DNA from: an uncultured Acidimicrobiaceae bacterium
GTDB taxonomy: Bacteria; Actinomycetota; Acidimicrobiia; Acidimicrobiales; RAAP-2
Assembly: GCA_963754445.1 (NCBI GenBank)
Contig: CAVWFT010000003.1
Coordinates: 76,348 to 140,347, forward strand
Direction of reading: 5' to 3'
DNA length: 64,000 nt
In this document: positions 1 through 36,851 of the stretch, one piece after another
How positions within the stretch are numbered: position 1 is the stretch's first letter
Layout of the letters: every line of letters begins with the position of its first letter
Program-made: the position numbers and the translations under genes
Notes under the pieces: generated by a model
Database searches by the model: none
The model's input: only the letters and a program-made list of their open reading frames with translations
What the model was told of the DNA's origin: nothing

Positions 1-127
1 CGAAGTTGACGTCTTGCGCCGTGTAGTTGGGCGTCTCGTCGTTGGCGATGTTGTTCGCCGTGGTCTGCTGCTGGAGCGAGACCCCGTCGACTGCGAACTG
101 CAGGACGCCCATGATGCCGTCGGACAC
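1..127 (-). CDS. flgB: Flagellar basal-body rod protein FlgB, first 42 codons only (gene runs off the left edge)
   Basis: Absent from the ORF track because it is truncated. Translating from GTG at 127..125 gives VSDGIMGVLQFAVDGVSLQQQTTANNIANDETPNYTAQDVNF, the ANNxAN..TPxY rod-protein N-terminal signature. AAGGGGGAG Shine-Dalgarno lies just upstream. Confidence 0.75.
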   Translation of the reverse strand, partial: MSDGIMGVLQFAVDGVSLQQQTTANNIANDETPNYTAQDVNF

Positions 128-191
128 GATCTCCCCCTTCGGATGTCACTCGGAGCCGGGCACGCATGGCGCGCCTCGACCTCTTCCTCGA

Positions 192-227
192 GCCCATCCT
201 GGGCGATTCATGCCGGCATTCCCTGCC
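192..227 (-). promoter_or_regulatory. flgB leader module with two GGA-loop hairpins, GGCAGGGAAUGCC and GCCCAGGAUGGGC (candidate CsrA sites)
   Basis: Read directly on the minus strand. Nearly identical to the block at 10126..10162 in the fliE leader. Confidence 0.45.
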
Positions 228-238
228 TGGCACTGGAG

Positions 239-266
239 CTATCGGCCTATGCCGGGGTCACCTTTA
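239..266 (-). promoter_or_regulatory. Sigma-28/FliA-type promoter candidate for flgB: TAAA-N16-GCCGATAG
   Basis: Minus strand reads TAAAGGTGACCCCGGCATAGGCCGATAG. The TAAA overlaps the stop codon of the sulfotransferase gene. Known consensus is TAAA-N15-GCCGATAA. Confidence 0.6.
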
Positions 267-1475
267 GTGTTGGCCCGCCGCGCTGCACTGCATCGCCTCC
301 GCCGCGGCGGCCTCCATCACCTCGGCCGAGGCGAGGAGGCCCCACCCCGACGAGCCGAGGTAGCCGGCCAGTCCGTCCAAGAAGTCTTTCTCGCTCCCGA
401 ATCGCTGCGGGACGTCGCCGTAACGACGCACCGCTCGGCGCTTCAAGGCACTACCGAAGTTCTCGGTGCCGGCGCACAGTCCGTCCAGCGCGGATCGCTC
501 GACGGCGACGACACAGGCCGGAGGCCCCCCGTCGTCGGGTGCCGGCGCGCCGAGCATGGCCGGTACGAAACCGTGCACGACGGCGCGGGCCCGCACCTCG
601 TGACCGTCGACCACCCTGATCTCGAGCGTGCCGTCGTCGGTCCGGACGATCGGACCTCCGCCGCTTCCCCACTCGTTGCCGACCAGGTCGTATCCCAGTT
701 GCTTGAGCAGTTGGTTCATGGCGTCACGCACGGGGATGCCCAGTCGTTCGGGCGGGATGCGGGCTCCTCTCCCGATCGACTCGGCGTGGACGGCGCGTGT
801 GTGCCAGATCTTGTAGTCGGCCGGACCCGAGGACTCGTGGGGCTGGGTGAAGGTGTCGACCGTCGACGTCGGGCTGTCGACGCCGAAAAGCTGCCAGACC
901 TCTGCCATGGACGCGTCGGTCCCGGTCACCAGATCTTCGTAACGGAGGCGCAGGCACCGGCCGGGGTGAGCCTGCTCGAAGGCCAACATGGCCGCCGTGC
1001 GCTCGATCCAGTACCCGCAGACGGCCAGCACGGTGTTGTGCGGGCTCATCTGGGCATAGGACCCGAGGCCGAAGCTGTCGAGTCCCCACTCGGACGCCTC
1101 GAGCAGCGACGCCGTCACGTCCATGCAGTGCCGGTGGAGCAGGATGAAGCGGGCCTCGGGCCAGGCCTCGGCGAGCTGCTCGAGCTCAGCGACGTTGGAG
1201 AGCGATTTGTCGCACCACCGTTGCTTCCCGGCGGCTTCGAGGTGGGATGCCATGAGGGTGTCGACCACGGCCCGGGCCCTTGGCAACACGGTGTCGGCGG
1301 CGAGACCGGCGGCGCGGGCTGAACCGGCGTAGGCGGAAACGAGGGTGGCGAGATCGGTCTCGCCCGGACACGAGATCTGCTCGTGCGCGTCGATCAACCA
1401 GCGCAGCAACGTGGAGCCACTGCGGGCGTTGCAGGCCACGAACACGGGTCCCGAGACCGTCATCGACACCGTCAC
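264..1475 (-). CDS. Sulfotransferase-family protein with an extra C-terminal domain of about 120 aa, last gene of the fliE-fliK operon
   Basis: ORF 264..1766 trimmed to GTG 1475, which overlaps the fliK stop as GTGA (alternative ATG at 1463). Has a PAPS-binding-like motif VACNARSGSTLLRW and a RHCMDVTAS region typical of sulfotransferases. Confidence 0.75.
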   Translation of the reverse strand: MTVSMTVSGPVFVACNARSGSTLLRWLIDAHEQISCPGETDLATLVSAYAGSARAAGLAADTVLPRARAVVDTLMASHLEAAGKQRWCDKSLSNVAELEQLAEAWPEARFILLHRHCMDVTASLLEASEWGLDSFGLGSYAQMSPHNTVLAVCGYWIERTAAMLAFEQAHPGRCLRLRYEDLVTGTDASMAEVWQLFGVDSPTSTVDTFTQPHESSGPADYKIWHTRAVHAESIGRGARIPPERLGIPVRDAMNQLLKQLGYDLVGNEWGSGGGPIVRTDDGTLEIRVVDGHEVRARAVVHGFVPAMLGAPAPDDGGPPACVVAVERSALDGLCAGTENFGSALKRRAVRRYGDVPQRFGSEKDFLDGLAGYLGSSGWGLLASAEVMEAAAAEAMQCSAAGQH

Positions 1476-3439
1476 AGCCGGATGTCCACTCGTCGGCCAC
1501 CGTCGAGCTGTTCGCCCGAGATTGCATCGGTCTCGGAGTCGCGGCGCCCATAGTCGGGTGCGATGTGCTCGGCCGAGGACTTGCTGTTTCCCTGGCCCGG
1601 ACTTGCGTGGCCCTGAGGGGTGCGGTCCCCACGTGGATCCGGCTGCGCCGAACCGAAGTCGGCCAGGTCCACGTTCACGCGGCGGTCGGATCCCTCCGTC
1701 AGTTGGCTGTGGAGCTGGTTGATCGTCTGGGAGAGTGCAGCATGACCGGTGGCCGAGTCGGCCCACAGGCTGACCGACACCTCCTCGCCGGCGACAGAGA
1801 CCGTGGCCTGCACGTTGCCCAGGCCCTCGGGTTGCAGAGACATCGTCACCGAGTGACTGCCGTCGTCGCCGGCCCGCAGCGGGGCGAGCACAGTCAGGAC
1901 CTGCTGCGCCACCGGATCATCGGGAGCGACCGTTCCCGCCCCGGCGAAGGACGCCGTCGGCAGCGCAGTGGGTGCGGTTGCTGTGGGCGGCGCAACACCT
2001 GCCAGTGCCACGGGCGCCAGCCCGGCCGTGGTCGCAGCATTCGTCGTTGGCGCCGCACCTGACGTGGTGCCCGCACCCGACGGTGAACCAGCGGGCGTCG
2101 GCGCCGACCCGGGATCGGATCCCGCACTGGTCGATCGAGGCGTTGACCCCGGTGGGGTCGTCGGAACGGTTGGCGACGTCGTGGCAGGCAACCTGGGGTC
2201 GAGGCGCGAAGACGCGGGCGGCGGCGCGCCTCCCCCAGCCGTCGGCTGTTCCGAGCCACTCTGGCCACGATCACGATCGTTCGACCCCGACGCACGGTCG
2301 GCGGAGCCGGGACCGGTCGGCTCCTCGCTCGAGGAAGACCCCGCGGCACCGGTCGCCGGCGCGGCAATCGACCGGAGACGTCCGTCGTCGGCCCGCCTCG
2401 GAGCCGAGGCGGTCGCCGCGCCCGCTTGGACCTCGTTCGCCGGGCGTTGCGCACTCTGCCCGACCTCAGGCTCGGACGAGCCGGGTGCACGTACCGCAGG
2501 CAGCTCCGATCCACGCCCTGACGAGACAGTGCCGGCCGGCGAGTTGTTGCCGGCGCCCTGTTGCGTGCCGCTCGTCGTGTCGGTCCCACCTGAACGGGCC
2601 GGAGCAGATCCCACGGTGCCCTGGACCTCCGGTGCCGGGGCCGACCGGGGCGCTGGCGCTCCCGAGCGCGCCGGGACCGGCGAGTCGGGAGTCGGGTCGA
2701 CCTGCGTCGCCGCCCGACCACTCGCTACAGGCTGGGCCGCCGGCGGCGTCGTTTCCGGTGACACGGTCGACCTCTCGGCAGCGATCGGGACAGCGGACGT
2801 CGAATCGTCCCTGGTTGTCGCCCCAACCGACCCGCCGGAGCTTTCGGCGCTCGTCGTGCCGGCGGGCCACGAAGGGACCCGGGCCAGCGGATCGTCACGC
2901 CCATCGGTCGTCGGGTCGGCCGGTGCTGCGCTCTGCGCGCTGACGTGGGGGTTCGCGTTGGTGGCGAGGAGGGCCGAGGAACCGGCCGATGACGGGAGAT
3001 CGAGGGCGGAGTGGGCGTCGTTGGCGGATCCGCCGCGGGGGTCGAGCACTGCCGTCGCACCAACCGACGGGAGCTGGGCAACGGTCGGCGCAGAGGTCGG
3101 AGTCACCGCCGCACCCGACGGGCTCGTTGACACGGCGCTGGAGGGCGCTGTGCTCACCCGCGTCCCGTGAGACCGGCGCGTCGGGCCCGGCTCGGCACCG
3201 GCGCCATGGGACTCCGACGGGTCGGACCCGTGTGGGCGGCCCTTTTGATCGCCCCGCTGCTGCACGGACGCAGAAGCGACATCGAGTGCGTCGGTGAACG
3301 CAGCCGCGGTCCCCGTGTCCAACGTGGCTTGGCTGTCGGCCGCTGCCGGGGCGCTCTGTGCCGCAGGCGCCGCAGGATCGGGCCGCGCCGGGTGCGGGGC
3401 CACGAGGTTCGCCAGAGCGGATCCCCCGGCCGCCGTCAT
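1472..3439 (-). CDS. fliK: Flagellar hook-length control protein FliK
   Basis: Pro/Ser/Ala-rich, 655 aa. C-terminal hook-length domain (SVTMSLQPEGLGNVQATVSVAGEEVSVSLWADS..). ATGA overlap with the upstream hydrolase gene. Confidence 0.85.
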   Translation of the reverse strand: MTAAGGSALANLVAPHPARPDPAAPAAQSAPAAADSQATLDTGTAAAFTDALDVASASVQQRGDQKGRPHGSDPSESHGAGAEPGPTRRSHGTRVSTAPSSAVSTSPSGAAVTPTSAPTVAQLPSVGATAVLDPRGGSANDAHSALDLPSSAGSSALLATNANPHVSAQSAAPADPTTDGRDDPLARVPSWPAGTTSAESSGGSVGATTRDDSTSAVPIAAERSTVSPETTPPAAQPVASGRAATQVDPTPDSPVPARSGAPAPRSAPAPEVQGTVGSAPARSGGTDTTSGTQQGAGNNSPAGTVSSGRGSELPAVRAPGSSEPEVGQSAQRPANEVQAGAATASAPRRADDGRLRSIAAPATGAAGSSSSEEPTGPGSADRASGSNDRDRGQSGSEQPTAGGGAPPPASSRLDPRLPATTSPTVPTTPPGSTPRSTSAGSDPGSAPTPAGSPSGAGTTSGAAPTTNAATTAGLAPVALAGVAPPTATAPTALPTASFAGAGTVAPDDPVAQQVLTVLAPLRAGDDGSHSVTMSLQPEGLGNVQATVSVAGEEVSVSLWADSATGHAALSQTINQLHSQLTEGSDRRVNVDLADFGSAQPDPRGDRTPQGHASPGQGNSKSSAEHIAPDYGRRDSETDAISGEQLDGGRRVDIRL

Positions 3440-8074: not shown

Positions 8075-9682
8075 CTACCCGCGGCCAACAGAGGACGTCT
8101 CGCGCTCCTTCGTCCACGACCGCAGTAGCGCCGCCACCTCGGCAGGCTGGGAGTCGATGAACTTGCCCACTTCCGCGGAGCGCTGTTCGCCCACCGCGGG
8201 CCGCTCGGAACCGATGGCCGAGACCTGGGCCGTGGCGTCGGCCGATCCGGGGTCGTAGTCGAGCGCGACCGCCGTAGCCGTCGGAACGAGCATCGGTGTG
8301 CGCCGGGGCACCCGGTTCTTCTTGGCACTGCGCCACAGGAGGAAGAGGACTGCCACAATGATGAGAACGACGACCGCAGTGCGGATGAGGCCGTTCATCG
8401 ATTGTTTCGACTGAGCCGCCTGCGCTGCTGCGGCAGCCTTGTTGGCGGCCGCCTCGGTCGCCGTCGAGAAGGGTGCCTCGCTCATCACCAGGTTGTCGCC
8501 TCTGGTCGCGTTGACGCCGGCGGCAGCCGCAACGCCCTGCTTGAGAGTGGCCAGGCTCACGCCCTTGGGGACGCTCTTGGCATTCACGAGCACGGCGATG
8601 GACTGGTTTTCCAAGGTCCCCGGTGCGTTCTTCTGGGTCTGCGTGACGGTTCCTGTGGAGTAGTTCGTGGACGTCGAGGAGTTCGAGTAGTTGCCCGAAC
8701 CGGTGTTGCCGCCCGCGGTCGTGGCCGACCCGAGGGTTCCGCCGCTCGTGGCACCCCCGGTGGCCGTCTCGGTGCTGGTCTGCGTCTGTGTCGGGACAGA
8801 GACGGGCTTGCCACCCGGATCGGTCTGGAATCCGTTCGTCACGGTCGACACCTGGTTGAAGTTCAGCAGCGCATTCACCTGGATCTCCGCGTTGCCCTGC
8901 CCGAGCACGCTGGCCAGATACGAGGCGATCTTCGCTTGCTGAGAGGCTTCGAACGCGCTGGTCGCCCCGTCGTTGGAACCGGCTGACGTGTCCACCCCAG
9001 GGCCCGAGAGGAGGTCGCCGTTCGAGTCGGCCACCGTGACATTGGACGCGCCCAGCCCTGGCACCGAGCTTGCGACGAGGTGCACGATTGCTTGGACCTC
9101 ACTGCCCGAGAGTGCTTGGCCCTGGGCGGTATCCACCAGCACGGAGGCTCCGGTCGGCGTGGCATTGGTCACGGCGAAGGTGTTCGCCTGGGGCATGGCC
9201 AGGTTCACCTGCGCGCCGGTGACGCCGTGAATCGACTCGATCGTCGACTGCAACTCACCCTGGAGGGCTTGGAGGTAGTCGGCCTGCTGAGTGGCCTGTG
9301 AGGTCGTGATCCCCTCCTTGTCCAGGATCCCGAGGCCGACGTTCGAACTCGCCGCGGGCAGGCCGGCAGAGGCCATGGCGATGCGTTCCTGGTCGACGTC
9401 GTTCTGGGGCACGTAGATGGACGCGCCACCGTCTTGAAGCTGGTACGGCACATGATTGGCCGCCAGCTTCGATGTGATGGAGGCGGCGTCGGCAGGTTGG
9501 AGATTCGTGAAGAGTGGCGCGTAGCTCGGCTTCGACACGAGGTTCATGAAGAAGTAACCGCCGATGACCATGACGGCGACCGCAACCAGTGTCACTGCCT
9601 TCTGCCCGGGAGTGAAGCCGTCGGCAAACCGACGGGCCCCTGCTCGCCAGCGGTCGAAATCTGCTGAGGCGACGAGAGCCAT
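8075..9682 (-). CDS. fliF: Flagellar M-ring protein FliF
   Basis: 535 aa with N- and C-terminal TM segments and a central Ser/Thr/Gly-rich region. One-nt overlap (TGATG) with fliE. Confidence 0.9.
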   Translation of the reverse strand: MALVASADFDRWRAGARRFADGFTPGQKAVTLVAVAVMVIGGYFFMNLVSKPSYAPLFTNLQPADAASITSKLAANHVPYQLQDGGASIYVPQNDVDQERIAMASAGLPAASSNVGLGILDKEGITTSQATQQADYLQALQGELQSTIESIHGVTGAQVNLAMPQANTFAVTNATPTGASVLVDTAQGQALSGSEVQAIVHLVASSVPGLGASNVTVADSNGDLLSGPGVDTSAGSNDGATSAFEASQQAKIASYLASVLGQGNAEIQVNALLNFNQVSTVTNGFQTDPGGKPVSVPTQTQTSTETATGGATSGGTLGSATTAGGNTGSGNYSNSSTSTNYSTGTVTQTQKNAPGTLENQSIAVLVNAKSVPKGVSLATLKQGVAAAAGVNATRGDNLVMSEAPFSTATEAAANKAAAAAQAAQSKQSMNGLIRTAVVVLIIVAVLFLLWRSAKKNRVPRRTPMLVPTATAVALDYDPGSADATAQVSAIGSERPAVGEQRSAEVGKFIDSQPAEVAALLRSWTKERETSSVGRG

Positions 9683-9996
9683 CAGAAGCTCATGCCCATG
9701 ATGGAGTTGAAGGCGTCAACCGCCTTGGTCACCATGGCCGACGTGACCTGCGTGTCGACCGAGGCCTGGGTCGCCGCGATCATGGCATCTCCGATATTCC
9801 CCTGGCCGGCCGCCACCTGGGCGGCCTGACTCGAGGCCGAGGCCTGTGTGCTCTGGAGTTGATCGACCGCATTGAGGATGCTGTTGGAAAAGCCGTCGGA
9901 ACCGGATGCGGCTGCGCCGGCGGAGGTCGCACTCGACGAGCCGGCGGCGGCCGTTGGCGGCGTGGGTGGTGACGGAGGGATTGGCGGGATCACCAT
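9682..9996 (-). CDS. fliE: Flagellar hook-basal body complex protein FliE
   Basis: C-terminal FliE signature (GDAMIAATQASVDTQVTSAMVTKAVDAFNSIMGMSF). ATG 9996 sits behind GGAG. Confidence 0.85.
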   Translation of the reverse strand: MVIPPIPPSPPTPPTAAAGSSSATSAGAAASGSDGFSNSILNAVDQLQSTQASASSQAAQVAAGQGNIGDAMIAATQASVDTQVTSAMVTKAVDAFNSIMGMSF

Positions 9997-10125
9997 GGGC
10001 GAATCTCCAACCAGGCCCGGGCAGCATTTGCCCTGGCACTCCAACTGCGGGACACAGTCACCACCCCTTGGACGTCACGTCGATGGCGTCATCGCGCGTT
10101 GCGCGACGAGCGTCACTCTCACCGT

Positions 10126-10162
10126 GCCCTTCCTGGGCGATCTACCGCTGGCATTCCCTGCC
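10126..10162 (-). promoter_or_regulatory. fliE leader module with hairpins GGCAGGGAAUGCC and GCCCAGGAAGGGC (second copy of the flgB leader module)
   Basis: Read directly on the minus strand and colinear with 192..227. Confidence 0.45.
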
Positions 10163-10172
10163 CGCACCATTT

Positions 10173-10200
10173 GTCTCGGAGGATTGGCAGGCCACCTTTA
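10173..10200 (-). promoter_or_regulatory. Sigma-28-type promoter candidate for the fliE operon: TAAA-N16-TCCGAGAC
   Basis: Minus strand reads TAAAGGTGGCCTGCCAATCCTCCGAGAC. Shares TAAAGGTG with the flgB promoter. Confidence 0.45.
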
Positions 10201-14550: not shown

Positions 14551-14578
14551 TCCTCCTGGGTTGTGCCCCATCCATGGG
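14551..14578 (-). promoter_or_regulatory. fliC leader: GGA-loop hairpin CCCAUGGAUGGGG plus SD CAGGAGGA (candidate CsrA binding sites)
   Basis: Minus strand reads ...GUCCCAUGGAUGGGGCACAACCCAGGAGGAACGGAUG. Confidence 0.5.
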
Positions 14579-14657
14579 ACTCTTTTTGTCTGTCTAGGTT
14601 CCCTTCGCCGAGGTATCAGGTTTCCCCCTCCTCACCCGAACCTGGGCACCGTGAATA

Positions 14658-14757: not shown

Positions 14758-17058
14758 ATGCGCCGTAACCCCGCCACGATCGTGGTGCCGGCCTGGAACG
14801 CCTGGGAACAGACTCAGGCCTGCCTCGAGTCACTTCGCCCAACGCTCGGTGTCCAGGACCAGGTCATCGTCGTCGACAACGGCTCTGTCGACACCACCTC
14901 CACCCGTCTGAAGCTCTTTTCCTGGGCCGAGGTGGTGACCAACCCCTCTAACCTCGGCGTGGCCGAGGCCTACAACCAGGGTGTCAGGCAGGCCCGGCAC
15001 GACATCATCGTCTTCCTCCACAACGACACCGTCGTGACCGGTCATTGGCTCGACGCCCTGCTGATGCCGTTCGAGGACTCCGCAGTGGGCGCCGTCGGAC
15101 CGCGCTCCAACTTCTGTTCGGGCCCTCAGGCGGCCGAGGGTGCGTCCTATCTCGACGACGACACCGCCGGCTTCCGCCAGTTCGCCCGCGACTGGGAACA
15201 AGCGCACCGCACGGAGATCTCCCCGATCGAGCTCCTGAGTCCGTTCTGCCTGGCCGTGCGTCGTTCGGCATTCGACCAAGTCCTCGGCTTCGACGACGAT
15301 GATGCCGCAGCCGGAATCGAAGAGGACGACCTCTGTCGCCGGCTTACCTCGAAGGGTTGGGGGTTGCGGATCGCCCATGGCTCGTTCGTGCACCACGGGG
15401 GTCACCGAACCTTCGAGGCCAACGGTGTCGACTGGTACGCGCGGCGTTCGGCGAATCGCACTCGCTTCGACGATCGCTGGGGCCCGGGTGCACCCCGTGT
15501 GCATCCGCTGATCTCGGCCTGCCTGATCGTCAAGGACGAAGAGGAGAACCTGCCCCGTTGCCTGGCGTCGCTCGAAGGCGTGGCCGACCAAATCGTCATC
15601 TACGACACCGGATCGGGTGACGACACCGTTCGCATCGCCCGGGAATCGGGAGCAACCGTGCTCGAAGGGTTTTGGGACGACGATTTCTCCCGGGCGCGCA
15701 ACACGGCGCTGGCCGCCTGCACCGGGGATTGGATCGCCTGGCTCGATGCGGACGAGGCACTGCGCTGCGAGGACGTTGACGCCCTGCGAGCCCAGCTCGC
15801 CCGGACCCGTTCCGAGGTCGACGGTTACAGCGTGGTCATCGAGAACGCCACCGGAGCCGGCGTGGGGTCGATGTTCGTCCACTCGGCCTGCCGGTTCTTC
15901 CGGCGCGCCCGCTGCGAGTGGGCCGGCCGCCTCCACGAGCAAGTAGCCGGTCGGAGAACACACCGACCTGTCTCGACGGCGGCGCTCGAGGTGACGCGCA
16001 TCCACCACACCGGCTACATGACCGAAGCGATGCACTCACGGGGCAAGGCGGAGCGCAACCTGCGGGTGGCCGAGGCTGAGGTCGAGTCGGACGACGGCTG
16101 GGACAAGGGGTTCTCGCTGACGAGCCTCGGTCGGTCGTACATGACCGCCGGCAAGCCCGAGCAGGCGTTGGAGTACTGCCGCCGCGGGGCGGAGGCGACC
16201 GAGAACATGATCACGCGCCGCTTGGCCTATCGCACGGTGGTGGACGCCCTCGCCGCCATGGGCCGTTTCGACGAGGCGCTGGTCGCCCTTGAGGACCTGC
16301 GCGGGGCCAGCGACAAAATGGTGCTCGTCCAGGTTCTCGAGGCCAATGTGCTGAGGCAACAGGGACGCCACGAGGAGGCGCTCGCCTTGCTCGAGGTGGT
16401 CGACCAGACCCAGTTCGACGACGATGGGTTCGAGTACGACGCCACGATGTTCGCCCAGCAGCGAGCCGAATCCCTGTCGGCTCTTGGTCGCTCCGGTGAA
16501 GCCGCCGACGCCCTGCTCGACGTCCTCACGGAAGACGGGGTCCTCGACTCCCACCTGGGGATCCTCGTCGAGTACCTCGACCGTGCCGGTCGTCCCCTGG
16601 ACCAGGTCGCCGTCGCCCTTCCCGAGGAGCAACTCCCGCAGTTCCTGGCCCAGGTGTTACAGCTGAGAACCGATATCGCCGACCGCGTGCTCGAGGCCTG
16701 CTTCGAGTCTCGACCGGGCGACGTCCTACCGGTGCTGGCGACCGCAGCCACGTTGGCCCGGCGCTTGCCGCTCGAACGTGCACTCCAGTGGTCGGCGCGT
16801 CTCCGGGCGTGTGGGCTCGACGCGTCATGCCCTCTCTTGTTCATCGCTACCGACCCCCAGCGCTCCCCCGTCGAGCGTGCCCGTGCCGTCGCCGCCGGCT
16901 TCAAACTGTTCGGAGACCCCAAGCTCCCCATGTGCTTCGGCGACATTCTCGGCGCAGCGACCGAGGAGCAGCGCCAGACGATCTGCGCCGAGGCAGCCGT
17001 GCTGTGTCCGGCGTTGCTCGAGGAGTCAGGTCTGGCCCTTTCGGCCGAGGTGCGCTGA
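14758..17058 (+). CDS. Tandem family-2 glycosyltransferase with C-terminal TPR repeats (flagellin glycosylation candidate)
   Basis: Two GT2 modules (IVVPAWNAWE...VVDNGSVD and ISACLIVKDEEENL...YDTGSGDDT...DADE). Then a TPR-like helical region. Confidence 0.85.
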   Translation: MRRNPATIVVPAWNAWEQTQACLESLRPTLGVQDQVIVVDNGSVDTTSTRLKLFSWAEVVTNPSNLGVAEAYNQGVRQARHDIIVFLHNDTVVTGHWLDALLMPFEDSAVGAVGPRSNFCSGPQAAEGASYLDDDTAGFRQFARDWEQAHRTEISPIELLSPFCLAVRRSAFDQVLGFDDDDAAAGIEEDDLCRRLTSKGWGLRIAHGSFVHHGGHRTFEANGVDWYARRSANRTRFDDRWGPGAPRVHPLISACLIVKDEEENLPRCLASLEGVADQIVIYDTGSGDDTVRIARESGATVLEGFWDDDFSRARNTALAACTGDWIAWLDADEALRCEDVDALRAQLARTRSEVDGYSVVIENATGAGVGSMFVHSACRFFRRARCEWAGRLHEQVAGRRTHRPVSTAALEVTRIHHTGYMTEAMHSRGKAERNLRVAEAEVESDDGWDKGFSLTSLGRSYMTAGKPEQALEYCRRGAEATENMITRRLAYRTVVDALAAMGRFDEALVALEDLRGASDKMVLVQVLEANVLRQQGRHEEALALLEVVDQTQFDDDGFEYDATMFAQQRAESLSALGRSGEAADALLDVLTEDGVLDSHLGILVEYLDRAGRPLDQVAVALPEEQLPQFLAQVLQLRTDIADRVLEACFESRPGDVLPVLATAATLARRLPLERALQWSARLRACGLDASCPLLFIATDPQRSPVERARAVAAGFKLFGDPKLPMCFGDILGAATEEQRQTICAEAAVLCPALLEESGLALSAEVR

Positions 17059-17188: not shown

Positions 17189-19564
17189 TCAGACCGGCGA
17201 AGGGCTCCCCACCAGTCCCTGCAGCCGCCCGGCGACCACTGCCAAGACGTGATTCCAGGTGAATTCAGCCAGGATGCGTCGACGGCCCGCCTCCCCCATC
17301 CCGGAGACGACCGAGGGGTCGTCGACGACGCGGCGCATGATCCCCGCCAGGGCGTCGGCGTTCGGCTCGGCCCACCAGTACCCGATCGAAGAGGGGCCGA
17401 TCTCGGTCATCTCGACCGGTGTCTGCGCGGAGGGGACGAAGAGCGCGTTCTCCGCAGTGCAGAAATCGAGACAGGCGCCGTAGTCGGTGACGATCACCGG
17501 AAGCCCCGAGGCCATCGCCTCGGCGACGGGAAGACCGAATCCCTCGCCGCGGTACGGGTGCACCAGGACATCGCAACTGCGGTAGAGCGCGGCCATGTCG
17601 GCTTCCGTCAGGTCGTCGTCGATGAGTTCGACCTCGGCCGAGAGAGGATCGAGCGCCACGGCTCGGAGCTGGTCGTCGATGGTCGAGCCGCGGTACACGT
17701 GGCCCGATCCGAAGGCCTTGACCACGAGACAGACGTCGTCATCGGGCCCGAACGACTCGAGGTACGAGCGCAGGAGCACATCGACACCCTTGCGGGCGAT
17801 CGTGCCTCCGACGAAGAGGAATTTCGTGGCTTTCGCGGTCCGGAGCTGGTACCCGGGTCCGGTCGGGCTGAACCGATCGGTATCCACACCGTGGGGGACA
17901 ACCGCAACCGATGACTCGGGCACGCCGCTGCGGACGTAGCAATCCCTGACCCAGGACGTCGGGCACCAGACCTCGGCGACGTTGCGGCGGATCTGCGGGA
18001 TCCAGGCCGACGGGATGCCCCCGAATTCCCAGGGCTGGATGAGCACGAGCGGGGCGGATCCGGCCGACGAGAGGTCGGGTGGCCACCGATGGCGGACGAC
18101 GAGGTCGATGTCGTTCCGGTCGCGGTGAGGCGGGAATGACCGCCCGATCCGTTCGACCTCGATCGCCGAATCGACGAAGAACGGCGGCGCCTCCGACGTC
18201 ACCGGTGTGACGGCGGCCAAGCCGGCGACGGCCAGACGGCCGGCCAATGCCCGGTTCACGTGGGCCAGGCTGTGGTGCGCGTAGAAGTCCCCCTCCCAGC
18301 GGATACTGGGTACGGACGGAGATGTCATCGCCGGACCGGACGAATCGAGCGCCCGCCCGCGCTCCCCGTTGCCCACCCCCGCGGACCCAGATCCCGATAT
18401 CGCACCCGGGGATGCGGGCGAGAACACGCCCGTACGGCGCATCCCGGTCCTCTCGGCCAGGGCGTCGATGCGTTCCGCCAGGACGCCCGAGACCTGTTGC
18501 CACTGCCACTTGCGTTCGACGTCGGCCCTCGCCCGGGCGCCGATGCGTGTGCGGTATTCGGCGTCGGCCTCCAGCCGCGTCATGACTTCCACAAGATGTT
18601 CGACGGACGGCTCGGCCCACGAGTGACCCCTGTAGAAGGCGAACTCGGCCCGGCCGTCGATGGCGCGCAGGCCCTCGATATCGAGCAGGACGCTGTTCTC
18701 GTCGTCCATGAACTCGAGGTTCCCGCTCCAGCGGGTGGCCACTGTCGGCAGGCGACAGGCCATCGCCTCGATCATCGGCCGGCCCCACCCCTCACCTCGC
18801 GAGGCGCTCACATACACGTCGGCGGCAGCGTAGAGACGAGGCAGGTCGGTCAGGCTCAACGGGCGGTCGAGCACGATGATCGGAGCCACATCGCGCCGGC
18901 TCTTTCCGATCGACTCCAAGAATGCGTCGATGCGTTCGTTCGGATCGAAGCAGGAGCCCTCGTGAGGTGCTGTGCGCAACACCAACGAAGCATCGTCGTC
19001 GGGCCCGAAGGCTGCCGCCCAGGCCGAGAGGATGACGTCCCATCCCTTGCGGTACGACCACTCGAAGATGGAGAGGAACACGGTGCCGCGCACGCCGTGG
19101 ACGCGCAGGGGACGCAGCCCGGGCCTGAAGAGCGACCCGTCAACACCGCCGGGCACCACCTCGACGGGAACGCTGACGCCAGCCCTGGTGAAGGTCTCCC
19201 GGTTGAAGGAGGCGGGCACCCAGACCTCGTCCATCTGGTTGAGGCGGCCCACCCAATCGGCCGGTATCGAGTCCGTCTCGAACATCGTGCGCATGACATT
19301 TGCCTGCGCGCCCTGGACGGGCGTGGCGCAGTAACCCGGCATGTGTTGCACCGAGACGAACGGGTGGCCGAGAGGGGTCTGGACCGCCTGGTGCAAGGAG
19401 AGCAGGCGACTCGGGGCCGAGGCGGCGAGCTGATCGATGAACTCGGGCACTTCTTGTCCCCAGGCGCGTGCCGTGACGGGATGACCCCGCTTCTGCATGG
19501 CGGTGATCATCGCCCGGCCTTCGTCCCCGTAACCGCTGAAGTTGAAGATCGGGCACTGCCACAT
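17189..19564 (-). CDS. Tandem family-1/4 glycosyltransferase
   Basis: Two GT1 C-terminal signatures (EGWGRPMIEAMACRLP and EGFGLPVAEAMASGLP). Start set at ATG 19564; the upstream 113 codons of the ORF look non-coding. Confidence 0.8.
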   Translation of the reverse strand: MWQCPIFNFSGYGDEGRAMITAMQKRGHPVTARAWGQEVPEFIDQLAASAPSRLLSLHQAVQTPLGHPFVSVQHMPGYCATPVQGAQANVMRTMFETDSIPADWVGRLNQMDEVWVPASFNRETFTRAGVSVPVEVVPGGVDGSLFRPGLRPLRVHGVRGTVFLSIFEWSYRKGWDVILSAWAAAFGPDDDASLVLRTAPHEGSCFDPNERIDAFLESIGKSRRDVAPIIVLDRPLSLTDLPRLYAAADVYVSASRGEGWGRPMIEAMACRLPTVATRWSGNLEFMDDENSVLLDIEGLRAIDGRAEFAFYRGHSWAEPSVEHLVEVMTRLEADAEYRTRIGARARADVERKWQWQQVSGVLAERIDALAERTGMRRTGVFSPASPGAISGSGSAGVGNGERGRALDSSGPAMTSPSVPSIRWEGDFYAHHSLAHVNRALAGRLAVAGLAAVTPVTSEAPPFFVDSAIEVERIGRSFPPHRDRNDIDLVVRHRWPPDLSSAGSAPLVLIQPWEFGGIPSAWIPQIRRNVAEVWCPTSWVRDCYVRSGVPESSVAVVPHGVDTDRFSPTGPGYQLRTAKATKFLFVGGTIARKGVDVLLRSYLESFGPDDDVCLVVKAFGSGHVYRGSTIDDQLRAVALDPLSAEVELIDDDLTEADMAALYRSCDVLVHPYRGEGFGLPVAEAMASGLPVIVTDYGACLDFCTAENALFVPSAQTPVEMTEIGPSSIGYWWAEPNADALAGIMRRVVDDPSVVSGMGEAGRRRILAEFTWNHVLAVVAGRLQGLVGSPSPV

Positions 19565-19830
19565 CAGGGAGATCGGTGCCGCCGCGGTGGCGTGGTCCGA
19601 CGTGCGCCCACCTGCTCCGGGAGCGTGGCGATGGCCCGCGGCGCGCGGCGCGGTGACGCGACCCCCGCCGCCACGAGAGCGACTGCCGGACTTTCGACCT
19701 CCCCGCTGGGGCACGACGTTGATGGTCGTCGCGAAACCGTTCGAAATTGAGCGTTTCTTGATCAAACGACGCGGGCGGACAGGTGCGCCGACGGCTGAGC
19801 GATGCGACCAGAGTTGGTCGGGCGGCACCT

Positions 19831-19890
19831 GTGGGTCGTGCGGTGGGTCGTGCGGTGGTTCGTGCGGTGGTTCGTGCGGTTGGTCGGGCG
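19831..19890. repeat. 12-nt tandem repeat, about 5 copies of gtgg(g/t)tcgtgcg
   Basis: Units at 19831, 19843, 19855 and 19867, plus a degenerate unit at 19879 that is identical to 19813..19824. Confidence 0.85.
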
Positions 19891-19903
19891 GTCCGTCGAT
19901 CAT

Positions 19904-26450: not shown

Positions 26451-26771
26451 GTGTTGGTCTTGAGCCGCCGGTCCCATGAAAGCATCCGGATCGGTGACAC
26501 CATCGTCATCACCGTGCTCGAGGTCCGAGGCGACCACGTGCGGCTCGGCATCGATGCTCCCCACGACGTCGAAGTCCATCGCCAAGAGGTCTACGACGCC
26601 ATCCAGACGGCGAACGTCTCGGCCGCATCGCCCGCGCCGGTGGCCGTGGCTGCCGCGGCCTCTGCACTACGTCGGGCCATGGGGAACGGGGCCGCGGGGG
26701 ATGCCGCCCCGTCGCCGGATGAGGCGGCGGGTCCTGAGGGTGCCCGCCCTCCTCGAACCGACACCGACTGA
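26451..26771 (+). CDS. csrA: Carbon storage regulator CsrA with a long Ala/Pro-rich C-terminal tail
   Basis: MLVLSRRSHESIRIGDTIVITVLEVRGDHVRLGIDAPHDVEVHRQEVY. GTG start behind GAGGAGG. Confidence 0.9.
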   Translation: MLVLSRRSHESIRIGDTIVITVLEVRGDHVRLGIDAPHDVEVHRQEVYDAIQTANVSAASPAPVAVAAAASALRRAMGNGAAGDAAPSPDEAAGPEGARPPRTDTD

Positions 26772-26908: not shown

Positions 26909-27403
26909 CTAGCGGGCCGCGCTCGCCACGGCCGGCGGCACCAGGGGCGCCGCCACGTCGTACTCGGAGCCGTGCATCACGACCTGGGCCGCAGCCCCGT
27001 TGCGTCGGTTGACGACGATCGGACCCAGCAGGTTCGCCGTGGGTGAACTGCCGTCCTCGGCCAGGGTCACGATCGAGAGCACGGCGGCATCCTCGGCCTG
27101 TAGCCCGAGCCGCTCCACCGTCTCCTCGTCCACCTCGACCTGGTAGTCGGGGAACAGCAGCCCCGGCGGCACGACGATGAACTCGACGCCCGGCGGTTGG
27201 GTGGCGCGCAGGCGGCAGAACGGCGCCAAGTCTCCGGGCATCGGCTCGATGACGAAGTCACGCAATTCGTCGAAGCCGGGTATCCCGACGGCGAACGTGA
27301 CCTCGAGAACCTCGTCGGTGTCGGTCGTGCGATCGAGCAGTACCGGCGTCGGGCCGGCACCAGTTTCGGCGGGAGGAGTCATGTCTTCACCGGTTCCGCT
27401 CAT
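26909..27403 (-). CDS. fliW: Flagellar assembly factor FliW (CsrA antagonist)
   Basis: FliW-like core (VTFAVGIPGFDELRDFVIEP...FIVVPPGLLFPDYQVEV...ANLLGPIVVNRRN). ATG 27403 overlaps the flgL stop as ATGA. Confidence 0.85.
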   Translation of the reverse strand: MSGTGEDMTPPAETGAGPTPVLLDRTTDTDEVLEVTFAVGIPGFDELRDFVIEPMPGDLAPFCRLRATQPPGVEFIVVPPGLLFPDYQVEVDEETVERLGLQAEDAAVLSIVTLAEDGSSPTANLLGPIVVNRRNGAAAQVVMHGSEYDVAAPLVPPAVASAAR

Positions 27404-28359
27404 CCCGCACCCAAGAACGAAACAAGCGAAGGCTGGACCAAGTTGGCCGTCGCCCACAGCGCCGTTTGGTACGAGTTCTGCTGCTGCGTGAGGTTGGTCA
27501 TCGCCTGGGGCAGGTTGACGCTCTGGATCCCCGACAACTCGGAGTTCAGAGCTGCCTGCGTGCTCGAGGCTTGCGTCGAGAGGGCCTGCATCTGCTGGTA
27601 CTGGGCCCCCAGCTGGGCCGCCTGGTTCTCGACGGTGGCAATGGCGCTGTCGAGATTCTGCAGATCGGTTCCCGACGCGGCCGCCAGCGACGTCGGCGTT
27701 CCCGTCGAGATGTCCTGCGAGATCTGCGCCAGCACACCGAGGCTGCCCGGTGTCGTGCTGAGCAGGCCGGTCGTCCCGGTCCCGAAGACCGAATCACCGG
27801 TCACCGAGATGGCGACCTGGGTCCCCGGGGCCACGGTCCGCACGGGTGCATTGCCGCCCCCGACGTACGTGCCGCTCGAGTCGAAGGCGGTGGTCACGTT
27901 GCCCGTGCCGGCGAAGATCGCCTGGCCGTTGTAGTTGGTGTTGGCCAGGTTGAGCAGGGTCTGCTGGGCCTGGCTGACCTGGTCGGCCAGGGCCGACAGC
28001 CCGGACTGGGAACCCGACAACGTGGCCGAGCTGATGGAGAGCACGTTCTGGCGCACCGACTGCAGCGTGCTGATGATCTCGTTCATGGTGGAGTTGCCCT
28101 GCTGGAGCCAACCGAGACCGTCACTCGCGTTGTTGGAGTACGAGGTCGAGCGGCTCAGCGCCGCATTGATCTGCATGATGTTGGCGGCCAGCGCCGGGTT
28201 GTCCGAGGGCTGGTTCACCACGTTGCCCGTCGACAGCTGCTCCTGGAGCTGCGCGATCGACGTCTCGTCGCTGTTCAGATTGGAGATCATCTCGTCGTTC
28301 ATGACCGACGGGGTGAGTTGGATGGACGGCATGAACGACCCACTCATCGACACGGTCAT
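27400..28359 (-). CDS. flgL: Hook-filament junction protein FlgL
   Basis: Flagellin-like N and C termini (LQEQLSTGNVVNQPSDNPALAA). Follows flgK. Confidence 0.85.
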   Translation of the reverse strand: MTVSMSGSFMPSIQLTPSVMNDEMISNLNSDETSIAQLQEQLSTGNVVNQPSDNPALAANIMQINAALSRSTSYSNNASDGLGWLQQGNSTMNEIISTLQSVRQNVLSISSATLSGSQSGLSALADQVSQAQQTLLNLANTNYNGQAIFAGTGNVTTAFDSSGTYVGGGNAPVRTVAPGTQVAISVTGDSVFGTGTTGLLSTTPGSLGVLAQISQDISTGTPTSLAAASGTDLQNLDSAIATVENQAAQLGAQYQQMQALSTQASSTQAALNSELSGIQSVNLPQAMTNLTQQQNSYQTALWATANLVQPSLVSFLGAG

Positions 28360-32731: not shown

Positions 32732-33187
32732 TCAGACTCCCGGGGTCCGGGCGTCCGGCGACGTCGACTCCGTGTTGGTGGTGGGATCGGAGGCGCCGGC
32801 GTCGGCTCCGTTCGCTGCAGGTTCGATCGGCGCGGCCTCGTCCCCGCGGGCAACCGCGCGCAGGGGAACCGGCCGGGTGGAGCTCATGGCGGTGTGGTCG
32901 TAGACCTCGTGGCGGTCCACGACAGGTCCTTTGGTGGATCCACGCACCACGCGCAGGCGTGATTCGCCTTCGTTGGCGTCTTCCTCGAAGACCAGACGAT
33001 GGGACAGGGCGAGCACGGAGGCCCGGAACAGGCGGATGGCGTCGATCAACTCGTCCACGGACTCGGCCACGACGAACTTGGAGCCGTCGGCCATCGTGAG
33101 CACCACGTCGGGTGTGATGTCGGCGCGCTCGATGCGATCTGGGTTGATCGCGACCTTCTCGCCGTTAAGTCTCGTAAGTGGAATCAT
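32732..33187 (-). CDS. flbD: Flagellar protein FlbD with a C-terminal extension of about 80 aa
   Basis: MIPLTRLNGEKVAINPDRIERADITPDVVLTMADGSKFVVAESVDELIDAI is the FlbD signature. Confidence 0.85.
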   Translation of the reverse strand: MIPLTRLNGEKVAINPDRIERADITPDVVLTMADGSKFVVAESVDELIDAIRLFRASVLALSHRLVFEEDANEGESRLRVVRGSTKGPVVDRHEVYDHTAMSSTRPVPLRAVARGDEAAPIEPAANGADAGASDPTTNTESTSPDARTPGV

Positions 33188-33277
33188 CGCGTCCGTGCCT
33201 GCCTGGTCATGCATCCGTGCCAACCACGGGCAAAGGACCGCTCCCTAACCGAGCGGATGGTCCCTGCCGCTGCCGTG

Positions 33278-33305
33278 GTATCGGAGGCCTGCCAAAGCGA
33301 CTTGA
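33278..33305 (-). promoter_or_regulatory. Sigma-28-type promoter candidate for flbD-motAB-fliL: TCAA-N16-TCCGATAC
   Basis: Minus strand reads TCAAGTCGCTTTGGCAGGCCTCCGATAC, followed 9 nt later by GGCAGGGA. Confidence 0.5.
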
Positions 33306-36263: not shown

Positions 36264-36851
36264 ATGCCCTACGATCCCGTTGTACTTTCACTGGATACTG
36301 AAATCTGTGGGTACTCCCCGTTGACCGAATCCCCGAATGAGTTGGATTGGCGCCACCGCTTTGTCGAGGACATGGGCGGTCTGGTCCTCGTCCATGGCGC
36401 ACCGAGGGCGCTCATGCGCGTCCTCGGTTGGATGGTCGTGTGTGAGCCGGCCGAGCAGACGGCGACGGACGTCCAGGACACCCTGGGCCTTTCCGCCGGG
36501 AGCGTGTCGACCGCGCTGCGCCTCCTCGGCGAGATCGGCCTGACCGAGCGGGTGAATCGGCCCGGCGATCGACGGATCTTCTACCAGTTGAGCACCGAAG
36601 GCTGGGAGCTCGTCCTCCAGCAGCGCTTCCGGGCCTTCACCGAGATCCGGGAAGTGGCCGACAAGGCCATCGCCGCCAGCGGACCCGACGCCAACGACCG
36701 GCTGCACGAAATGCGCGACACCTGGGCCTTCATGGAGTCGAGTGGCACCCAGCTGCTCGCCGCCAGCCGGGCCCGCCGCAACGGCCCCCCGGCGCCCCAG
36801 CAACAAGCGGCCTCGTCGTCCACCATGACGCAACCGCAGACCGAGGCCTGA
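36264..36851 (+). CDS. GbsR/MarR-family transcriptional regulator
   Basis: Winged-helix region (TATDVQDTLGLSAGSVSTALRLLGEIGLTERV). The first ~20 codons have AT-rich third positions, so the true start may be TTG 36321 or 36342. Confidence 0.7.
   Translation: MPYDPVVLSLDTEICGYSPLTESPNELDWRHRFVEDMGGLVLVHGAPRALMRVLGWMVVCEPAEQTATDVQDTLGLSAGSVSTALRLLGEIGLTERVNRPGDRRIFYQLSTEGWELVLQQRFRAFTEIREVADKAIAASGPDANDRLHEMRDTWAFMESSGTQLLAASRARRNGPPAPQQQAASSSTMTQPQTEA

Follow-up and report, generated by a model that had tools for sequence, protein, structure and literature searches.

In Bacillus subtilis the described mRNA target of CsrA is hag, and to our knowledge CsrA systems of the FliW type are known essentially as flagellin-homeostasis devices. 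Here we consider a pair of short hairpins, each presenting GGA in its loop, that stands in the leaders of two early flagellar operons (those of flgB and fliE) in a 64,000-nucleotide (nt) stretch of contig CAVWFT010000003.1 from an uncultured Acidimicrobiaceae bacterium. The whole stretch is referred to as the window, and the pair of hairpins as the module. Judged from sequence, what is new here is a putative CsrA-type dual hairpin site on a new target and in a new phylum, with a predicted anti-start-region function.

Among the closest described systems are the flagellin leaders of B. subtilis (hag) and Campylobacter jejuni (flaA), in which a CsrA site overlaps the Shine-Dalgarno sequence (SD). 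The window resembles these in that the same proteins are encoded in the locus and a short G/C stem carries a GGA loop, and the flagellin leaders of these genomes fit the hag/flaA family exactly, with the CsrA-type site overlapping the SD. The early leaders differ, because their target is an early operon and neither GGA of the module overlaps the SD, which in the window lies 50-60 nt after the second hairpin (the SD of the fliE leader, AAGGGGUGG, contains no GGA). A second likeness is to the hairpin pairs of RsmZ, RsmY and CsrB, which clamp one RsmE or CsrA dimer. The module likewise has two adjacent GGA loops approximately 20 nt apart and would be bivalent, but it is part of an mRNA leader, consists of one pair only, and is not followed by a terminator.

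Two systems of Escherichia coli are relevant to a possible positive effect. In flhDC, as the work of Yakhnin et al. (2013) is summarized in PMC7652899, CsrA binds two sites near the mRNA 5′ end and blocks RNase E. Set against that summary, the module would probably likewise place two CsrA-type sites right at the 5′ end of an mRNA for flagellar proteins, a long way upstream of the SD, and a positive outcome would be expected. It differs in that the target is a structural rod/MS-ring operon instead of a master regulator. The antagonist of CsrA in this actinobacterial host is of the FliW type rather than small RNA sponges, each site is the loop of a hairpin whose stem co-varies, and the module has in addition an antisense relation to the start region. 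In ymdA, CsrA activates translation by opening a hairpin in which the SD is hidden (PMC7492729, PMC7652899). Here too the predicted structure masks the SD and the CsrA-type sites are on the masking strand, so that binding and masking would be mutually exclusive. Unlike in ymdA, the masking strand is predicted to refold into two local GGA hairpins, and the masking is long-range, spanning 60-70 nt and kept, in silico, in nine of 15 clades.

The initial annotation had proposed that control of rod and MS-ring operon leaders by CsrA would be new. This calls for some qualification, since CsrA of C. jejuni binds many non-flagellin flagellar mRNAs (PMC4894983), although flgB and fliE are not among the enriched ones, and flhDC is a target in E. 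coli (as summarized in PMC7652899). In Actinoplanes, the only actinobacterium studied, all flagellar genes have FliA-type promoters and post-transcriptional control is suspected (PMC13083903); a literature search found no study of CsrA targets in actinobacteria. This missing post-transcriptional layer has a concrete candidate in the CsrA-type element described here, which is conserved and co-varies, stands on the first of all flagellar operons and occurs across a whole uncultured lineage; if the assignment is true, CsrA could control basal-body genes besides flagellin.

The twin-hairpin module and its conservation

The four hairpins of the window are as follows:

227..215, minus strand: first hairpin (hp1) of the flgB leader, GGCA (227..224)-GGGAA (223..219)-TGCC (218..215), GGA in the loop
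204..192, minus strand: second hairpin (hp2) of the flgB leader, GCCC (204..201)-AGGAT (200..196)-GGGC (195..192), GGA in the loop
10162..10150, minus strand: hp1 of the fliE-operon leader, GGCA-GGGAA-UGCC, identical to hp1 of the flgB leader
10138..10126, minus strand: hp2 of the fliE-operon leader, GCCC-AGGAA-GGGC

These agree exactly, in sequence and coordinates, with the twin GGA-loop hairpins that the initial annotation had placed in the two leaders. The hairpins are separated by 10 nt in the flgB leader (ggcatgaATC) and by 11 nt in the fliE leader, which gives GGA-to-GGA spacings of 23 and 24 nt, close to the 20 nt proposed at the outset. A 13-mer and a 16-mer of the module each have exact copies at just these two sites in the 64 kb of the window (68.5% G+C), and a covariance model of the module finds no further match in it at E<=0.01. 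In Rfam 15 the whole window is without a match at gathering score, and the two leaders are without a relevant match at E<=10; the twin-hairpin motif is thus absent from Rfam.

Leaders of relatives were gathered via FliG and FlgB, never via the motif. A FliG scan with one genome per species returned 10 actinobacterial loci (FliG identity 92-50%), all from uncultured Acidimicrobiaceae, Acidimicrobiales or ‘Actinomycetes’ metagenome-assembled genomes (MAGs), with a spirochaete as the eleventh match. A FlgB-profile scan of metagenomes added 35 loci and FlgB homologues another 4, and no cultured host was found among the FlgB relatives. Loci are cited below by numbers of the form L001.

The twin is present in 29 of 33 orthologous leaders, compared with 3.0 expected from shuffles. 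With one representative per lineage, twins with stems of at least 4 base pairs (bp) occur in 11 of 14 leaders vs 1.1 expected (P<5e-7; 0 of 2,000,000 simulations reach 11). In a MAFFT alignment of the 33 leaders, which contain 29 distinct modules, GGA is invariant in both loops. It always lies inside a loop of 4-7 nt, mostly of the form AGGAN, (A)GGGAM or ANGGAN, and the two GGAs are spaced by 21-29 nt in each of the 33 leaders, whereas hp2 lies a variable 23 to 74 nt from the start codon.

The stems around the loops vary. There are ten distinct stems for hp1 (GGCA/UGCC, GGC/GCC, GGUC/GGCU, GGUC/GGCC, GGGUC/GGCUC, CGCC/GGCG, GGGCC/GGUCC, AUGCU/GGCAU, GAGC/GCUC and GC/GC) and eight for hp2 (GCCC/GGGC, CCC/GGG, GCCA/UGGC, CGCCA/UGGCG, GCCG/CGGC, GCCGA/UCGGC, GCC/GGC and CCA/UGG). 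Several contain G-U pairs (GGUC/GGCU, GGGUC/GGCUC and GGGCC/GGUCC). In L048 and L049 hp1 is lengthened to GCGG(U)GGC...GCC(U)CGC, with a swap from G-U to G-C between the two loci. Pairs were counted on an alignment that had not been fitted to the structure, with 500 shuffles and slid partners as controls. By this count 79.7% of the cells are paired, compared with 71.4% in the shuffles, none of which reach that value, and at most 46% in the slid controls. The covariation score is 0.176 vs 0.082, again with none of 500 shuffles as high. Re-alignment with the covariance model gave the same pair numbers, and the MAFFT register was kept; because the covariance-model alignment left the larger-loop sequences (L014-19 and L026-30) out of register, these counts are conservative, and the stems given here were taken from a per-sequence hairpin table instead. 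Folded by itself as the 36-43 nt stretch that RNA polymerase would produce first, the module has the twin hairpin as its minimum-free-energy structure in six of eight lineages tried. When loci were held out of the covariance model, their best match was the flgB leader, at 4e-6 for L047 and weakly (0.16-0.8) for L048, L049 and L050.

The claims of a conserved module common to both leaders, and of two short RNA hairpins that present GGA, are borne out: in relatives the stems change by compensation and by G-U pairing, and the GGA and its spacing stay fixed. We consider it very likely that the block is a functional cis-acting RNA element.

The distribution of the module also shows how the two window copies arose. 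Both leaders carry it in L001-3, L009 and L012. L005-8, L010 and every locus farther off have a single copy, upstream of flgB in a flgB-flgC-fliE-fliF-fliG operon, from which it follows that the window clade split this operon and duplicated the promoter and leader. The flgB and fliE copies are therefore paralogues that derive from the split of the ancestral operon. Linker (AGCGG..) and SD-GUG region are still ancestral in the fliE copy, whereas in the flgB copy the linker and the sequence downstream of it have changed; the two hairpins are kept in both. This is a clean case in which the splitting of an operon duplicated a regulatory leader along with its start region. The two hairpins are retained down to approximately 35% FlgB identity.

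Two further sets of loci show partial likenesses. L050 (3935..3980; FlgB 52% identity) has one clear GGA hairpin, GCGGU-ACGAGGAUC-ACCGC, plus an unstructured GGA beside the -10 element, and so the twin module is not universal. L040 and L041 have a remote flgB (identity 26-27%, lower G+C), and approximately 150 nt before it stand GGCA-GAUAC-UGCC, which has no GGA, and CCC-AGGAC-GGG; this likeness may be convergence or chance.

Promoter-like sequences and predicted pairing with the start region

Each module copy follows a promoter-like sequence:

266..261, minus strand: TAAAGG, -35-like element of the flgB promoter (relatives have CTAAAG or CTCAAG)
245..239, minus strand: -10-like CCGATAG of the flgB promoter, sigma-28/WhiG type; hp1 begins 11 nt downstream
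10200..10195, minus strand: -35-like TAAAGG of the fliE-operon promoter
10179..10173, minus strand: -10-like CCGAGAC of the fliE-operon promoter; hp1 begins 10 nt downstream

The pattern TAAAGG-N15-CCGA has exact matches in the window at only 266..242 and 10200..10176, each preceding a module copy, and the full sequences (TAAAGG-N15-CCGATAG and TAAAGG-N15-CCGAGAC) match the sigma-28/FliA/WhiG-type consensus (TAAA-N15-GCCGATAA-like). In relatives, the corresponding promoters read CTAAAG or CTCAAG, then N16, then (C/T)CGA(T/A)A. In every lineage the -10-like element (xCGAxA) is followed by hp1 at a distance of 7-12 nt, which puts hp1 at or just after the likely sigma-28-type transcript start. 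The module is thus probably located at, or within a few nucleotides of, the mRNA 5′ end. No sigma-70-type promoter was predicted around either leader, and neither a minus-strand terminator or attenuator nor a U-tract was found there. A terminator was also not found between the fliE and flgB operons, and the flgB -35 element TAAAGG opens with the TAA stop codon (264..266) of the upstream sulfotransferase open reading frame (ORF), with which the fliE operon ends. Read-through transcripts, in which the module would be internal, are therefore possible. A sigma-54 promoter reading of GGCA-N5-TGCC was rejected, as the GG-to-GC spacing is 8 nt and not 10.

Farther down each leader, the module faces a complementary stretch around the start codon:

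153..125, minus strand: flgB start region, CCGAGUGACAUCCGAAGGGGGAGAUC-GUG, complementary to hp2 and its flanks (GCUC:GAGU, GGAUG:CAUCC, CCC:GGG)
10082..10053, minus strand: start region of the fliE leader, CGACGUGACGUCCAAGGGGUGGUGACU-GUG, inherited from the ancestral flgB leader and complementary to AUCGCCC and the GGA of hp2
10055..9990, minus strand: small ORF of 21 codons (VSRSWSARANAARAWLEIRPW*), whose stop overlaps the fliE start (AUGGUGA)

The duplex between the flgB module and its start region has a predicted energy of -23.3 kcal/mol (z -3.8), which none of 200 shuffles attains. When the full flgB leader is folded with RNAfold (-53.3 kcal/mol, z -4.0), hp1 is kept and the hp2 region pairs with the SD and start. 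In the fliE leader, RNAfold pairs AUCGCCC with GGGGUGGU and GGA with UCC. The consensus folds obtained with RNAalifold depict variants of the same arrangement. For 15 leaders of the window clade and L005-8, hp2 is local and hp1 is paired to the SD and GUG, at positions that are invariant and so show no covariation. In the L014-21 group, CCCAGGA pairs with UCCUGGG in all eight sequences, and the 3′ arm of hp1 and the linker pair with the spacer between SD and AUG, with some compensatory changes. Across clades, the bases that flank GGA co-vary with the start region: GGAUGG with CCAUCC, CCCAGGA with UCCUGGG, CACGGAUAG with CUAUCCGUG (L026, L029 and L030), and CACGGACG with CGUCCGUG (L048 and L049), the last two pairings both ending in the start codon.

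A swap test compared the pairing of each module to the start region of its own leader with its pairing to those of 14 other clades. The native combination comes first of 15 in four clades (P=0.015) and among the top three in nine of 15 (P=0.0008). Shuffle tests of hp2 against the SD alone, and of hp1 against the start region alone, are significant in some clades only. Most full-length leaders are predicted to lack hp2 at equilibrium, and forcing both hairpins costs 4-15 kcal/mol. The local hairpins are therefore conserved and co-varying yet are not the predicted ground state, as expected of a switch that is held by a ligand or by folding kinetics. The predictions suggest a two-state leader in nine of the 15 clades, including both window copies, in which the module would either mask the start region or form the twin hairpins.

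The small ORF of the fliE leader begins at the ancestral flgB SD and GUG. Its frame is kept, with in-frame indels, in L001-3 and L009, and in relatives it has 21-22 codons of the form VSPxSxRRANDDARTxxExxxW*, with a stop-fliE overlap of AUGGUGA or GUGGUAA. It looks to be translationally coupled to fliE, to which it would hand ribosomes on. That the fliE copy kept the old SD and GUG after the split suggests a joint function of leader and start region. Between the module and flgB, L025, L028, L032 and L033 also have short ORFs (11-14 codons), each with a strong GGAGG SD and a stop that overlaps the flgB start (ATGA or GTGA). Those of L025 and L033 read MYSARANR..; the SARAN is common to the small ORF of the window, with different codons, and could reflect homology or chance. 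A leader peptide of flgB itself (ATG at 211, 21-codon frame) was rejected, as neither the frame nor the start codon is kept in L002.

CsrA as candidate reader, and the alternatives

Both csrA and its antagonist fliW are encoded in the locus, as the initial annotation had noted, and the flagellin leader provides a hag-type site for comparison:

26451..26771, plus strand: csrA, 106 amino acids (aa), Pfam CsrA at 6.7e-26
27457..26909, minus strand: fliW, assigned by Pfam
14580..14565, minus strand: flagellin leader hairpin GUCCC-AUGGAU-GGGGC, comparison site of the hag BS1 type
14556..14551, minus strand: flagellin SD GGAGGA, whose GGA lies 19 nt after that of the hairpin

The closest solved relative of the window CsrA is the Geobacillus CsrA of the CsrA-FliW complex (5DMB), and it also aligns with RsmE and CsrA structures (2JPP and 1Y00). 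In an alignment to these three, L2, L4, R6, R7 and R44 are kept, as is N55 in the window genome, and a C-terminal tail rich in Ala and Pro extends approximately 50 aa beyond the conserved fold. No csrA or fliW was found in the fetched loci of the relatives, which are too short to tell. The flagellin leaders of the window, L001-3, L005-9, L013 and L047 all have a G/C stem, an AxGGAx loop and an SD GGAGGA 17-19 nt later; with this hag-type arrangement, flagellin in these lineages is evidently under control in the style of CsrA. The hairpin of the flagellin leader is similar to hp2.

One CsrA dimer can bridge two sites that are 10-63 nt apart (PMC7652899). The module has the features of such a dual site, namely a GGA core, its presentation in the loop of a short hairpin, and a spacing of 21-29 nt that falls within the published range, so that the proposed likeness to a CsrA dimer site is upheld. 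From this spacing, the presence of csrA and fliW in the window, the kept R44 and N55, and the canonical flagellin leaders, we regard CsrA as the best candidate ligand of the twin hairpins, and probably the right one.

If so, one CsrA dimer would clamp both loops of a nascent early-operon leader. In the closed form the module would mask the SD and start codon; in the open form the twin hairpins would be present and the start region free. Binding of CsrA would hold the leader open and permit translation of flgB, and of the small ORF and fliE, and might additionally shield the mRNA 5′ end. When the hook-basal body exports flagellin, FliW would be freed and would capture CsrA, upon which the early operons would close and flagellin translation would open, in a mirror image of flagellin repression. 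We offer this chain (RNA element, CsrA ligand, opening, activation) as possible rather than probable in its entirety. Activation as the net effect of CsrA on the early operons is also a tentative proposal, and its direction is the weakest step of the mechanism. Still more speculative, and on balance doubtful, is a general scheme for these actinobacteria, in which early and late flagellar operons appear to have one promoter class of the sigma-28 type in common and CsrA-FliW would set the order of assembly post-transcriptionally, with a single RNA-binding protein as a reciprocal early/late switch; before completion of the hook-basal body, free CsrA would clamp the twin hairpins, unmask the start region, turn the rod/MS-ring/export operon ON and block the flagellin SD.

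Several observations weigh against this reading as a whole or in part. If twin GGA-loop hairpins are defined loosely (4 bp or more of stem with G-U allowed, loop of 4-8 nt), they are common in the G+C-rich window, with 50 and 57 on the two strands, and approximately 10% of shuffled 150-nt leaders contain one. A single occurrence therefore means little, and significance comes from conservation in relatives, every one of which is an uncultured MAG. Several of the stems have just 3-4 bp, and hp2 is near-invariant (GCCC/GGGC) in most clades, so that its covariation rests on the deeper lineages. In four clades (L010, L020, L022 and L032) there is no pairing between module and start region, and the overall Wilcoxon test gives p=0.084. 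Forcing the hairpins has a modest effect on the predicted accessibility of the SD, which in the window clade rises from 0.28 to 0.45 and in some lineages does not rise, as calculated with no arbitrary-hairpin control. In C. jejuni, RNA immunoprecipitation sequencing did not show enrichment of flgB (1.6x) or fliE (2.4x) (PMC4894983). Finally, in the deeper clades the SD (GGAGG or GGAGGA) lies only 23-34 nt after hp2, within bridging range, which makes an hp2-SD bridge, and hence repression, equally feasible there.

Repression is the commonest mechanism of CsrA (PMC7652899). In such a case, as at hag and flaA, the 5′ hairpins would serve as high-affinity anchors from which the dimer, or a second dimer, reaches a weaker site at the SD or start and blocks the ribosome. 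Some flgB SDs of the window clade do contain GGA (GGGGGAGA and GGGGGAUGA). Yet in the window clade and L005-8 a gap of 50-60 nt separates hp2 from the SD, in which GGA is often missing (AAGGGGUGG, GAGGUGG), and two hairpins as close as these would fill both faces of one dimer. By the logic of FliW, moreover, CsrA would be free before the hook-basal body is done, when repression of basal-body genes would make little sense. We consider repression through the twin hairpins unlikely.

The leader might also function independently of CsrA, masking its own start, with 5′ hairpins that resist 5′-end-dependent RNases or set the folding kinetics, and with loop GGAs that either offer the 30S subunit an SD-like (AGGA) standby site or pair with UCC near the start. 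The position of hp1, 7-12 nt after the -10 element and probably 5′-terminal, the complementarity of the module to the start region, and the fact that AGGA belongs to the SD consensus are all compatible with this. However, pairing alone would let GGA:UCC drift, and GGA is invariant in both loops of 29/29 distinct sequences even as the flanks change. The local stems co-vary, which places the hairpin state itself under selection, and the flagellin leaders, neighbours of csrA and fliW, have hairpins of the same type. The GGA-GGA spacing is also fixed though the linker is free, as expected of a bivalent reader. This explanation, too, appears to have only a small chance of being correct.

A decoy role, in which abundant early transcripts would soak up CsrA and thereby tune the translation of flagellin rather than their own, is improbable: the twin hairpins do resemble the sponge units of RsmZ and CsrB, and the flaA leader of C. 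jejuni titrates CsrA (PMC4894983), but each transcript has a single dimer site, and the module co-varies with its own start region and was kept with it after duplication, which points to an effect in cis. A DNA operator, the alternative raised in the initial annotation, in which a regulator would bind two palindromes just downstream of the promoter, is highly improbable, for although the module lies at approximately +1 to +40, GGCA-N5-TGCC and GCCC-N5-GGGC are inverted repeats and LuxR-type and MarR-like genes are nearby, the two palindromes differ from each other, and variable arms around an invariant asymmetric GGA (the opposite of a dimeric operator), with several stems that need G-U pairs (mismatches in DNA), exclude a palindromic operator and indicate RNA of this strand.

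Gene context and neighbouring leaders

Gene names were confirmed by Pfam. The genes that follow the two leaders are:

127..1, minus strand: flgB, start GTG at 127..125, N-terminus VSDGIMGVLQFAVDG..., running off the window
9996..9682, minus strand: fliE, 104 aa from ATG 9996

On the minus strand the order is fliE, fliF, fliG, fliH, fliI, an NlpC/P60+SLT gene, fliK, a sulfotransferase gene, the flgB promoter and flgB. Flagellin, fliD and fliS are upstream of fliE, and flbD, motA, motB, fliL, flgN, flgK, flgL and fliW are farther along. The csrA gene is convergent with fliW rather than co-directional, and is preceded by a small plus-strand ORF. Regulator genes nearby are one of LuxR type (33437..36193) and one that is MarR-like (36264..36851).

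The flbD leader (33305..33180, minus strand) had been grouped with those of flgB and fliE on the basis of a shared 8-mer. The word, GGCAGGGA, is indeed present at 33268..33261, but it occurs five times in the window vs 4.3 expected, the covariance model gives no match in this leader, and the fold is a different one, with GGA in or at a stem; flbD was therefore rejected as a third member. Its promoter is of the same type (CTCAAG-N16-CCGATAC, followed by GGCAGGGA), and the leader folds into a long 5′ hairpin, GGCAGGG...CCUUUGCC, around CCGCUC-GGUUAGG-GAGCGG, without GGA loops.

The sulfotransferase gene (264..1766) is inside the flagellar operon, and large multi-domain glycosyltransferase genes adjoin flagellin (14758..17058 and 17189..19903), an arrangement that is similar in L047. 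These neighbours suggest that the flagellin of the window is glycosylated or sulfated.

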